Assembly: GCA_000092065.1 (NCBI GenBank)
Contig: CP000587.1
Direction: 5' to 3' (one strand)
Length of the DNA stretch: 64,000 bases
From: Ostreococcus lucimarinus
Lineage: Eukaryota
Shown: positions 54,230-58,219 of the stretch, in pieces
Numbering within the stretch: the stretch's first letter is position 1
How the letters are laid out: each line of letters opens with the position of its first letter
The notes under the pieces: generated by a model
Databases searched by the model: none
Seen by the model: only the letters and a program-made list of their open reading frames with translations
Told to the model about the DNA's origin: nothing
Translations under genes and position numbers: made by a program

Positions 54230-57200
54230 CTACTTGGAGACGGTTTTCATGGTGAAACGAAGTTTTGGCTTGGGAGCGCCTTTGTCGGCGGGCGGGCGCC
54301 AGCGCGGCTCGACGCACTTGGCGGCGTCGTACGGAGAGTCGCGCTCGGGAACGGGATGACCAGGGTACAAAGATTGGATCGTCTTCGCGATGACGCCGCG
54401 TAAGACTTCGGCATCTTTGTACAGCGTGCTGCTCGATTCGTTGAAGTTTTGGCAGTTGGAAAGCATGAGCTCGAGGGCGACGCAAAACATCCACGTCGAG
54501 GGGTAACCGCCCGCGTTCAAGCATTTTTGAATGCTGCCGAGATCGATGGGCGCAGAGATGGCGCGATAGTACTCGGGTAAAGCCTTACGCGTAGGAAGTA
54601 ACTCGAAAGGATCCGCGCGTTTGCGTCCTTTTTTGTCCTTGCTCGCGCGAATAGCGGCCAGAACGCTCCGACACGCGCTCGTTTCTTGCTTTGTCATCTC
54701 TATCTTTTCCGGCGGCGGAGACGCCTCCGCGGTGTCTTCGCTCATCTCTTCTCGACCGTCATCCGCGAGGTAATCGATTTCTTCATCGGTATCGACATCC
54801 ACTTTGTTCACCAGTTCCCAGACTTCCCCACCTCGAGCGTCACGAAAGACGAGCGGGTTTTGTCGCAATAGCGCGCCAAGCGCCGCGAGTGGTCTTCGTC
54901 CCCAAAGACCACAATCCACACCTTTCTCGACCATGATTTCATAAAGCGAATTTAATGGCATTGCGTTTCCGTGAACACGAGAGAGGACGTAAATCGCGCA
55001 GTCGAGCGGGTTCTTCGGCACGCGACGATCTCTCGGCGCGCTGCGTTGAGACTTTCGCTTTGGTACATATTCCTCAGAATCCGAATCATACCGCGCACGA
55101 CGCTTCCTTTGCGGGGCGGCTTGTGTGTTTGATTGTCTGAGCTCTGGTTGAACGTACTTCTGCGGAAATGGATCGTCTTCGTCTTCAATCACGCCATCAT
55201 CGACTGGTTTATCCCACGCTGGCTCATCTACGTTGTCGTAAATGTTCTTTGATGGCACCGGGTGGCCTGGAAACCGTTCCTGAACCGCCTTGAGATAGAC
55301 GCCTCTCAGGACTTCGGCGTCTCTGTAGAGCATCGAAGCGGGATCGTTAAAGCGCTGACAATTGGTAAACATGAGCTCCATCGCGACGAGGAAGAACCAG
55401 ACATTCGGGTAACCAGCCATGGATTTCCGAAGCATTCGCTCGATCGCCGCACAGTCGACCGGACACTTGATGATTTCGTAGTAATCAGGTAGGGTGAAGC
55501 GCGAAGGGAGCCTTTCGAACGGTTCAGATAAGCTTCTACCATCGGCTTCGACTTTGCGAACAGCTTGTAGAATTTCGAAGCACTTACGACGCTCGCTATG
55601 CTTCATCGTCGTCGTCGATGGTTTCAAACGCGTGTAAACGCTAAATCCTCCTAGTGGAACTCGAACGGTGGCTTCTTCAGAGCCTGCAACGCCTGGCGGA
55701 CGCACGTGGAGACGAGAGGGCGCTTTTTCGTCCTCGGCTTCCTCTTCGTCGTTCGGAACAAGCACGTCCGAATCGAGCCACTTCACGCGTTGCATGCAGA
55801 GCGCGACGTCCTCCAGTTGACCATCGTCGTACCTAATTGAATGATCGCCGTTCGCGACGTTGTAAGCTTCAACATTCCCGAGGTAGAACAGCTGCTCTGT
55901 CGCCCACCAGACCGCTATGCGCCGTCCGATGACATCATCGCCCTTTTCATCGCCGCGTTCGACCAAGTGCGCGCCGATAGTAATGCCAGGCGTGTCGTCG
56001 GGATTGAGAACGCGGCACGAATTTCGCCATTTTTTTGAGCTGCCGCAGCCAGACATGCGTTCGAATTCGCCCCCACCGACTATTTTGTCTGAAGCGACAT
56101 CGTGTATGCGTTCAGCGCGCGATTTGCACATTGTTTGTAACATGCCTACGTGACCGGCACAGGTAATGGCGATTGGATCCGGAATATCTTCCTCGCCTTC
56201 GTAGGCCGCAAGATCTTCGGCGCTGTAGCCGATGGATTCCTTCATGCACACCACGCGCCTCCCTCCGTGCAATTCCATCTCAGCCTCGCGGCGAACCTCT
56301 TCCTCTTCAGCATCTCTACGTCGACGTTCGCGCTCACGCTCGCGCTCAGCATCGCGTTCTGACTTCTCTGCAGCCTTTTCAAAAGACTCGATGCTTCGCA
56401 GGACCTGGTATTCAAACGTTCGCTTTGCGTCGAGATCCTCCAAAGCAATGTTTGCGAGCATTTCTCGTTTCGTCTCGTCGGCGTCGTCCATGGCCGCAGC
56501 TTCTACTTTCCGCTCCATGTGCGCTTCGAGGGAGTCTTGCACTTGCTCTTCCGAGTACCCGAATAGCGTGTCACCATCTATTTGGTCTGGCTTCCATTCG
56601 TACTCGACGGGTTTGTACCGCTCCGATTCGGTGAGATTGAGTTGATACTTTTCGTATCTCCCCGTTTCAACCATGCGCTTGAGGTGAGAGTGCGCGGCGT
56701 AGGGTACCGCTCGCTGGTACAGTCGCTCCTCCGGAAGTTCGTCCGCCATGACCTGTCTATTGGTAATCAACCCCGTACTCGCAAGAGTGACGAGTTTAGT
56801 GAAGTGCGGCAAGGACGACCAATCGACAGCGTCAATGGGGTAGTCCTCGACCACGCCTCTAGTCGTCCTCATGAGCATCGTGGAAGTGGATACCGGTGCA
56901 CCTGGTAAGAAGCGATTGACAGCCGGATACTGGGTCGATAAGGGTTCTGAGTGTCGCTCCCAATCCTTTTCGGTTCGCTCGTAGCGACTCAAACCGTCAT
57001 CGGCGGCGACGTCCACTTCCATCCTGTCATCCTCGACGACGTCCACGTTCAACACTAGGTCGCCAGCGTCGGATACGGATAACGTGACCGCCACGCGCTC
57101 GCATCGCGCCTCCGCATCGTCCGTGACTTCGACGTTCTTCTCCTCTTTCACCTCGACATACCCATTTATTTGAAGGTCCTTGAATTCAACAGTAGAGTTC

Positions 57201-58219
57201 AAGTTATCCGCGAATCCCATCGGCCGATACGTGTGACCCATGCAAGCATAGAACAATCCGCACGCGGTGCACAAAGAGCGTCGCTTATCTGGACCGAGAC
57301 GCATCTTTGGTGTCTCTTCTTTGCTGATGCCGCATTGTACGCAGTGGGAGGCGATTTCACCGTCTAAGACGTCGATCTTGTCCACTTCCCAATTCTGGAA
57401 CTTGTTCTCTTTGAACTGCTTGCGAAACGCCCGTCGTGTCTTTTCTTCTTCGTCAAGTTCATCTTCTTTCACGACGGGAATCGGTGCGTGCTTGACAATC
57501 GGCGCCCACAACGCCCTCGCGCGCTCGTCAATGTACGTCGGGTAGTACGGACGGTACCAGCTCGGCGTTGGACTACCCATCAACAAATCTAAGGCCTTCT
57601 CCGCGCGTTCAACAATGAAGTCTTCGTAAAGTCGCCGCCGACGTCTTGCGCACTCTTGCAAAATGATCACCGCCGCGCCGCTCGCCGTCGCGCTTCCTTT
57701 CTCATCCGTTCGCACGTGTCGTTTATTCTCCTTCACACGATCATTCCCCCATATCAAATGGTGCCAACCCACGTCATCCGTCCACGCCGCGTACGGTTCA
57801 TCACCGCAGTACCCTTCGACGAAGTAATTCTTCGGCACCAATCTTCCATTCAAACCTCTATCCTCCTCCGTCGCCGTGCCGAGACTCCCCACGTCCGCGT
57901 CCACCTCAAACGCCCAATGCGTCCTCAACGGTCGCTCGATCCGCGTGCCGCGCCACGACGTCAGCCTCGACTCTTTCCGTAATTTCTCCACTCGCGAGCT
58001 CTGTCTCGCCGGTTCTCTCTTCACTCTCGGTCCTCGTCCTCTTCCGCGGCCGCGTCCGCGCCCTCGCCCTCGTCCGCGGCCCGGCCCGTCTCCCTCTCCA
58101 CCGATCCCCGCCTCGCTCGCCAGCTTCGCCAGCGCCAAGCGTTCCATCAGCGCTTTATTTCTTTCGATTTTCGCTTGTCGCTCGCGCTCGTACTCGGTGA
58201 GCTCTTCTTCGCGCGCCAT
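54230..58219 (-). CDS. Chromatin-associated protein with two bromodomains, a ZIM-type GATA zinc finger (C-x2-C-x20-C-x2-C), a Tudor/chromo-barrel-like segment and an N-terminal (GR)n tract
   Basis: ATG at 58219-58217. Bromodomains at [44 protein letters not shown] and [44 protein letters not shown]. GATA-like [47 protein letters not shown] near the N-terminus. Confidence 0.85.
   Translation of the reverse strand: [1329 protein letters not shown]

Follow-up and report, generated by a model that had tools for sequence, protein, structure and literature searches.

A double-bromodomain protein of Ostreococcus lucimarinus with GATA, SAND and Tudor domains as a probable multivalent chromatin-targeting scaffold

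In a 64,000-nucleotide stretch of Ostreococcus lucimarinus DNA (contig CP000587.1; this whole stretch is called the window below), the minus strand at 54230..58219 carries a complete coding sequence for a protein of 1329 amino acids plus stop, in which two bromodomains stand together with a GATA-type zinc finger, a SAND domain and a Tudor domain. The window, at ~60% G+C, is crowded with long open reading frames (ORFs) that lack introns, and the frame at 54230..58219 likewise starts with an ATG, runs for 3990 nt with zero internal stops and needs no introns. When 5.8 billion proteins were searched, five further full-length clusters emerged that are 51–65% identical to the window protein along its whole length, each of them annotated with both Bromodomain and GATA. 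The alignment of these six orthologues is colinear from end to end and holds hundreds of invariant columns over the entire length. One of the clusters comes from Ostreococcus mediterraneus (UniRef A0A7S0KGS2, named 'Bromo domain-containing protein') and the remaining ones were automatically named 'protein polybromo-1' by Joint Genome Institute (JGI) pipelines; the family is present in the databases under these two names only. Synteny was examined for one orthologue, the most distant Ostreococcus-type one, and the order deoxyhypusine synthase, PhyH dioxygenase, the gene for the 1329-residue protein, EF-hand protein and tetratricopeptide repeat (TPR) protein proved to be common to the window and L001/L002. 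Because the protein is conserved at 51–65% identity in five other lineages, its set of domains is not a product of chance.

The same order of parts extends beyond these clusters. An exhaustive search found the full architecture in only three 50%-identity clusters, namely P0005 (the Ostreococcus representative), P0058 and P0059, plus fragments. P0058 (1709 residues) and P0059 (1384 residues) have all the blocks in unchanged order, and P0058 is encoded on a compact Tara Oceans metagenome contig of 62% G+C, where its neighbours differ from those in the window. The genes of P0058, P0059 and P0062, like those of the GATA-finger proteins P0154 and P0163 described below, are intronless and lie on compact contigs of 62–69% G+C, which hints at another mamiellophyte, perhaps Micromonas or a relative, as their source. 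Orthologues that share this arrangement of parts thus come from at least six lineages of Ostreococcus and, further away, from two picoeukaryote clusters. Long, poorly conserved linkers at residues 240–290 and 345–450 are the sole point in favour of a trivial explanation, in which the long ORF is an artefact and at least two neighbouring genes have been read through as one. This explanation has next to no chance of being correct: the 3990-nt frame is free of stops, one colinear ORF spans the gene in each of the six Ostreococcus clusters and in P0058 and P0059, and an entire orthologue is spanned by transcripts of the Marine Microbial Eukaryote Transcriptome Sequencing Project (MMETSP) that are marked 'type:complete'. 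The continuous frame, the colinear orthologues and the full-length transcripts together rule out a gene-fusion artefact; the gene model does not split, and 54230..58219 is one real, single, conserved gene.

An earlier note on this DNA, made from the sequence alone, had described two bromodomains, an X20 GATA-type finger, a Tudor barrel and a GR repeat in this one polypeptide. All of these parts are present, and to them we add a SAND domain, a winged-helix-like domain and two conserved blocks that the note had overlooked. We consider it probable that the protein is a clade-restricted multivalent chromatin-targeting scaffold of Ostreococcus and a few related picoeukaryotes. A specific link to a SWI/SNF-type remodeller is put forward far more tentatively, as a possibility on the unlikely side. 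In what follows, nucleotide coordinates are window positions and all features of the protein lie on the minus strand.

The alignment was cut into blocks, and the profile of each block was searched against all PDB sequences. Bromodomain 1 (BD1; residues ~873–983, 55271..55603) and bromodomain 2 (BD2; residues ~1176–1284, 54368..54694) account for two matches to the Pfam Bromodomain family (PF00439; 100.5 bits against a cutoff of 21.7, E = 5e-29). The Asn that anchors acetyl-lysine (Asn958 in BD1, Asn1260 in BD2) and the Tyr residues of the ZA and BC loops (Tyr913/914/965 in BD1, Tyr1217/1218/1267 in BD2) are invariant in the six orthologues. Searched separately, the two bromodomains gave the same ranking of PDB matches: BD1 scored 74 bits with the second bromodomain of Rsc4, 56 with the fifth of PBRM1, 52 with BRG1 and ~39 with a single BRD4 domain, and BD2 scored 67 bits with the second bromodomain of Rsc4, 55 with the SWI/SNF component 7lhy_A, 52 with PBRM1 and 49 with SMARCA2. 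Over both searches, PBRM1 bromodomains reached 52–56 bits, SMARCA4/SMARCA2 47–52 bits, and TAF1, TIF1alpha, PCAF and BAZ2B ~40–51 bits; all five bromodomains of the PBRM1 chain 7y8r_U could be aligned. A word-indexed search with the bromodomain half of the protein returned only fragments of the family and one coral polybromo-like protein; the identity between BD1 and a bromodomain of a polybromo-1-like protein from coral is 45%. The earlier note had measured the protein against the BET and GTE families, which turned out to be the wrong reference, as Rsc4, PBRM1 and then SMARCA2/4 outrank single BRD4 domains. This per-domain ranking, together with the absence of any ET/BET domain at E ≤ 5 in the six orthologues, rules out BET/GTE kinship. 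By these scores, the nearest class for both bromodomains is polybromo/RSC/SMARCA, and we assign them to the polybromo/RSC type.

The third reader is a Tudor domain of the RDM15/PDS5C (PTM/DIR17) type at residues ~757–815 (55775..55951). The window protein itself matches the PTM/DIR17 Tudor family (PF21743) at residues 765–806 with 18.6 bits, below the cutoff of 27.2; PF21743 matches all six orthologues (best E = 8.7e-6), and the six-sequence Tudor profile aligns over its full length with 7de9_A, the RDM15 Tudor, at E = 3e-14. The earlier note was right that a Tudor-like barrel exists and wrong in proposing to look for it at residues 1100–1170. The barrel segment (IGRRIAVWW...YDDGQ) occupies residues 764–801 (55817–55930), and the stretch 1100–1170, where a Tudor is ruled out, consists of a winged-helix-like domain and linker. 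7DE9 contains the Arabidopsis RDM15/PDS5C Tudor bound to histone H3 monomethylated at lysine 4 (H3K4me1), in which W616, Y623 and Y641 form an aromatic cage, D643 and D645 hold the monomethylammonium group, and E647 and Q654 hold H3R2 (PMC8184781). When these contacts are mapped onto the window protein, six of the seven are kept (W772, Y779, Y797, D799, E803 and Q810); position 779 is Phe in two orthologues and the other mapped positions are invariant. The closeness to RDM15/PDS5C also bears on another reading, in which the protein would connect genome maintenance with H3K4me1, a role that has been proposed for the Tudors of plant PDS5C/RDM15 and MSH6, and the literature does tie this type of Tudor to DNA-repair targeting. 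We regard such a role as very improbable: the Tudor is one module among many, and Pfam found no cohesin, mismatch-repair or other repair domain in the six orthologues.

Directly before the Tudor, the chromatin-targeting scaffold that we favour carries a SAND domain (residues ~683–755, 55955..56173) with a KDWK-like motif, KKW(K/R). Pfam alone recognises it weakly: SAND (PF01342) matched four of the six orthologues below the cutoff, with a best E of 0.0049, and left the window protein itself unmatched. The top PDB match of the SAND-block profile was the SAND domain of SP140 (E = 0.018), with the KDWK-region motif aligned. An AlphaFold2 model of the block (pLDDT, the predicted local distance difference test, of 78) was compared with known structures by Foldseek, and the top seven matches were all SAND domains (1ufn, SP140 8j70/8j71 and GMEB1 1oqj; probability 1.00, template-modelling (TM) scores 0.57–0.68), after which the next match fell to E = 0.67. 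Three proteins with above-cutoff SAND domains, P0063 (35 bits), P0066 (50 bits) and P0094, match the family profile at the SAND region. K729, K730 and W731 are invariant, as is the KKW(K/R) motif. The modelled fold confirms residues 683–755 as a SAND domain, and the sequence matches and transitive homology support it. A contiguous SAND + Tudor module recurs in many marine eukaryote metagenome proteins (among them P0063, P0066, P0073, P0079 and P0118), and the SAND region also matches the Chromochloris zofingiensis protein Cz02g12250. A further protein, P0061 (2322 residues), has Myb, DDT and PHD domains, two bromodomains and at least four Tudors; it and the proteins with the SAND + Tudor module appear to be unnamed.

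SP140 has the order SAND–PHD–bromodomain. The order SAND–reader–bromodomain of the window protein parallels it, and the SAND domain of SP140 is the best sequence match and among the best structure matches, as would be expected of an SP100/SP140-like reader that acts as a repressor or nuclear-body scaffold and not with a remodeller. We give this reading only a slim chance, as the bromodomains do not belong to the SP100/TRIM type (with TIF1alpha the score is ~42 bits, with Rsc4 it is 74), no PHD, HSR or CARD domain was found by Pfam, and the likeness is most simply convergent.

Apart from the readers, the candidate scaffold holds a GATA-type zinc finger with the pattern C-X2-C-X20-C-X2-C at residues 293–329 (57233..57343). 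It scores 33.1 bits with PF00320, above the gathering cutoff of 26.8 (E = 4.3e-8), so that the four-cysteine segment put forward in the earlier note does stand as a GATA finger; the part quoted there corresponds to residues 293–320, and its two Cys pairs are separated by exactly 20 residues. None of the six orthologues departs from the four Cys or from the X20 spacing. Among PDB sequences, the finger profile matched GATA3 (E = 8e-6) and AtGATA18 (E = 4.5e-5), and also GATA1 and AreA. Another match, 23cp_S ('Putative chromatin structure-remodeling complex protein', 607 residues), which we suspect to be a fungal RSC Sfh1 orthologue, aligns its C-terminal finger at 546–578 ungapped across the long loop (E = 0.013). 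A precedent for a GATA finger in a subunit of a chromatin complex is fungal RSC Sfh1, which combines SNF5 with GATA (PMC6090059). The term 'ZIM-type' used in the earlier note fits the 20-residue loop and nothing further: plant subfamily III (ZIM/ZML, class C) joins an X20 finger to TIFY and CCT domains (PMC7716463), and Pfam found neither domain in the six orthologues, even at E ≤ 5, nor was either found in the nearest X20-finger proteins. Membership in the ZIM family is ruled out by the absence of TIFY and CCT.

Upstream of the finger lies the N-block (residues ~105–240, 57500..57907), whose fold was not recognised and which contains the motif AWTDDxGWHHxIWG and 51 columns that are invariant in the six orthologues. 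A profile of residues 1–870 was run with HMMER exhaustively against 1.84 billion representatives, and its best non-orthologous finger matches were P0153, P0154, P0163 and P0165, all of them with X20 fingers and without TIFY or CCT. They form a family of stand-alone proteins of ~720–735 residues with no other Pfam domain, and the N-terminal region of P0154 and P0163 is 35–36% identical to the N-block (E = 2e-10) and precedes the finger, as in the window protein. A stand-alone N-block + GATA gene is intronless (locus L003, 666–2873) and lies on a compact contig of 69% G+C. A word-indexed homology search with the GATA block gave zero returns. By these profile matches, 'N-block + X20 GATA' is a cassette that exists as a stand-alone family and is also fused to the reader cassette in the window gene. 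This points to an independent GATA factor as either the source or the product of the N-terminal third of the window protein.

The remaining parts of the protein are less readily assigned. Between the bromodomains, the fold of residues ~1068–1140 (54800..55018) points to a probable winged helix, possibly of the HARE-HTH (ASXL / RNA polymerase delta) type. At the N terminus, a helical motif at residues 4–34 (58118..58210), with no function assigned and zero Pfam matches, is conserved in P0002, P0005 and P0006 and appears as TKYERQRQANIARNK in P0058, P0059 and P0062. It is followed by a (GR)8 dipeptide repeat at residues 47–62 (58034..58081), a basic low-complexity tract that is written in mixed codons and therefore is no pure microsatellite. 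The GR tract noticed in the earlier note is thus present; the label 'RGG tract' given to it is imprecise, as the tract contains zero Arg-Gly-Gly triplets. RGG units do occur in P0005 from O. mediterraneus. The length and the sequence of the tract differ among the orthologues, and P0058 and P0059 have a Lys/Arg patch at its position and no GR dipeptide repeat; a basic, probably DNA-contacting low-complexity element seems to have been kept in function, not in sequence, across the relatives. AT-hook-like GRPRGRPRK motifs are found in P0058 (residues ~335–345 and ~1300–1310) and likewise in P0059.

The mid-block (residues ~455–575, 56495..56857), also of unrecognised fold and with 51 invariant columns, is still recognisable in P0058, P0059 and P0062. 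Profile searches gave no credible relative of either the N-block or the mid-block among PDB sequences. After the mid-block comes a Glu/Arg-rich, highly charged segment (residues ~576–655, 56255..56494) that we read as helical from its composition, and for which two orthologues gave weak DivIVA-type coiled-coil matches. At the other end, the window gene stops right after BD2, and from its stop to the start of the EF-hand gene there are 154 bp (54076–54229). The O. mediterraneus-type orthologues P0005 and P0006 (columns ~1400–1500 of alignment A1) and P0058 (residues ~1630–1709) have a C-terminal extension with a Cys-rich motif, for example CGVCVNCLEPTRRKRC, and then a second PTM/DIR17-type Tudor. 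The window protein lacks this extension, and because only 154 bp separate the stop from the next gene, it has been lost in the lineage of the window.

As judged by motif and profile, the window protein thus joins three readers, in which all or nearly all ligand-contact residues are kept, to a basic repeat and two or three domains from families that bind DNA, in an order common to all relatives. From the observed domain identities, conserved ligand-contact residues, single-gene status and phyletic distribution, we infer the actual ligands, the DNA binding and the partner complex as follows. DNA would be contacted by the X20 GATA finger that follows the N-block, the SAND domain with its KKWK/R motif, the probable winged helix and the GR tract. 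On the histone side, the predicted ligands are low-methylation H3K4 plus H3R2 for the Tudor and acetyl-lysine for the two bromodomains. Contacts that are each weak, to DNA and to nucleosomes carrying acetylation and H3K4 methylation, would probably combine by avidity into stable and selective residence on active chromatin, where the N-block, the mid-block and the charged segment would dock an effector. The type of the bromodomains makes a SWI/SNF-type remodeller our best guess for this effector, and the protein might be a functional analogue of polybromo and Rsc1/2/4 in which GATA, SAND and winged helix replace BAH and HMG. The same order of parts and the AT-hook-like motifs in P0058 and P0059 argue for DNA contact combined with the reading of marks as the conserved theme.

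Several observations weigh against this proposal. The first concerns the histone side, as RDM15 D645 corresponds to Gln801 in all six orthologues, and because this Asp is replaced by Gln the methylation-state preference of the Tudor may differ from that of RDM15. Others concern the remodeller: BAH and HMG domains were not found at E ≤ 5 in the six orthologues, nor at E ≤ 0.01 in P0058 and P0059; BD1 and BD2 are separated by ~190 residues, unlike the packed tandem of Rsc4; and a survey that included O. tauri reported no SMARCH-type subunit in plants or Archaeplastida, from which SMARCH-type subunits, and hence a PBAF/RSC-like specialisation, were inferred to be confined to opisthokonts (PMC9170682). 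The bromodomain kinship, moreover, is a ranking by bit score and not a phylogeny.

These points bear still more directly on a stronger version of the remodeller link, in which the protein would be a true orthologue of SMARCH (PBRM1/Rsc1/2/4), a resident subunit of a PBAF/RSC-like SWI/SNF complex that goes back to the eukaryotic ancestor and was remodelled in this lineage. Such an origin would explain why each bromodomain scores best with the second bromodomain of Rsc4 and then with PBRM1, ahead of SMARCA2/4, why BD1 comes so close to a coral polybromo-1-like bromodomain, and why automatic pipelines chose the name 'protein polybromo-1'. It has to contend with the missing BAH and HMG domains, with the similarity-only nature of the match and with the dedicated survey, and also with the occurrence of the full architecture in only about three 50%-identity clusters, a distribution that speaks for a recent origin by domain shuffling more than for ancient inheritance. 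We consider true orthology unlikely. That Mamiellophycean algae own a polybromo-like SWI/SNF targeting subunit, built from PBRM1/Rsc-type bromodomains, an H3K4me1-type Tudor, SAND, GATA and winged helix, is similarly doubtful; the bromodomain similarity raises the question of SMARCH outside opisthokonts without settling it.

On the DNA side of the proposed scaffold, it is the GATA finger that gives reason for caution. Canonical GATA factors such as GATA-1 and AreA have a basic tail after the finger. In plants, a 'conserved basic follow region' has been described after the GATA finger (PMC7716463). The 30-residue stretch that follows the finger carries a net charge of -1 to -4 in each of the six orthologues; the CNAC of the finger is kept in four of them and replaced by CTAC in P0002 and the window protein. 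The window protein thus has neither the basic region nor the LCNACG Asn of DNA-binding GATA factors. Because of the acidic tail and the CTAC, binding to classical GATA sites is not assured, and DNA binding by the finger is, on its sequence, uncertain.

The same residues count against reading the protein as mainly a sequence-specific transcription factor of the GATA family, in which the finger and the SAND domain would pick promoter motifs and the readers would stabilise the binding or recruit co-activators. This reading draws on a finger that is above the Pfam cutoff and has invariant ligands, on the stand-alone GATA family of ~730 residues that shares the cassette of N-block and X20 finger, and on the binding of DNA by SAND domains through their KDWK region, as in the SP140–DNA structures among the fold matches. 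Beyond the acidic tail and the Thr in place of the CNAC Asn, it is opposed by the composition of the protein, ~75% of whose conserved part is made up of reader or unassigned domains, and we think it unlikely. The multivalent scaffold, in which DNA contact is one of several weak interactions, is the reading that we retain.

Every module of the protein is of a known kind. We found no description, in the literature searched, of this architecture or of 'polybromo' in prasinophytes, so that the combination of GATA, SAND, an H3K4me1-type Tudor, two polybromo/RSC-type bromodomains and a probable winged helix in one protein is undescribed there and the earlier note was justified in calling its combination unusual. 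A protein that joins DNA contact, histone methylation and histone acetylation could serve as a compact model for multivalent chromatin reading. Ostreococcus has one of the smallest genomes of free-living eukaryotes and is genetically transformable. If the protein were a remodeller subunit, the view of polybromo-type subunits as specific to opisthokonts would need revision (PMC9170682); if it were an analogue of polybromo, it would show that the 'polybromo' function can arise anew when domains for reading marks and for binding DNA are shuffled. The N-block + X20 GATA cassette and the widespread SAND + Tudor module also provide new annotation handles for algal and metagenomic proteins.

The surroundings of the gene can be described briefly. 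Its EF-hand neighbour (53014–54075, minus strand) encodes 353 residues with six EF-hand matches and a long, low-complexity Gly/Met/Pro/Ala-rich linker between the N- and C-terminal EF-hand pairs; in L001, the EF-hand region is called as two genes (85 and 285 residues). Three ORFs, at 45242–49498 (plus strand, 1418 residues), 60936–61844 (plus strand, 302 residues) and 62004–62804 (minus strand, 266 residues), gave no Pfam match at E ≤ 0.001, and the first of them matches the position of an unannotated 1412-residue gene beside the TPR protein in L001. The G+C content peaks at 70.5% in 26001–28000, where a 1828-residue ORF (27126–32612) begins, and dips to 47.5–52.5% in 46001–52000, against the window mean of ~60%. 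No tRNA genes were found in the window.

Compared with known systems, the window protein resembles a different one in each of its parts. With fungal Sfh1 it shares the presence of a GATA-type finger in a chromatin-remodelling-complex protein, if our proposal holds; the likeness is confined to the finger, which is C-terminal in Sfh1, and the window protein lacks the SNF5 domain. With the ZIM/ZML GATA factors it has in common the C-X2-C-X20-C-X2-C spacing and the pattern TP.MR.GP...LC.ACG, which ZIM sequences also show. ZIM/ZML factors are ~300 residues long, however, and the window protein is about four times longer, lacks TIFY and CCT and is dominated by chromatin readers. The SAND fold and a KDWK-like DNA-contact motif are shared with SP100/SP140/AIRE, GMEB1, DEAF1 and plant ULTRAPETALA1, whereas the reader next to the SAND domain is a Tudor and not a PHD finger, the bromodomain type differs, and HSR/CARD, MYND and B-box are absent. 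RDM15/PDS5C provides the closest solved Tudor, which shares the W/Y/Y cage, one of the two Asp and both H3R2 residues with the window protein; the second Asp is Gln801 here, and the host protein is unrelated and has no PDS5/HEAT repeats. PBRM1/BAF180 and Rsc1/2/4, finally, differ from the window protein in having six bromodomains in series or a packed tandem, where the window protein has two that lie ~190 residues apart, and in their BAH/HMG domains; GATA, SAND, Tudor and winged-helix modules are not known from PBRM1 or Rsc1/2/4. What the window protein has in common with them is a plan in which several bromodomains of the same type are combined, in one non-catalytic polypeptide, with DNA- or nucleosome-binding modules.

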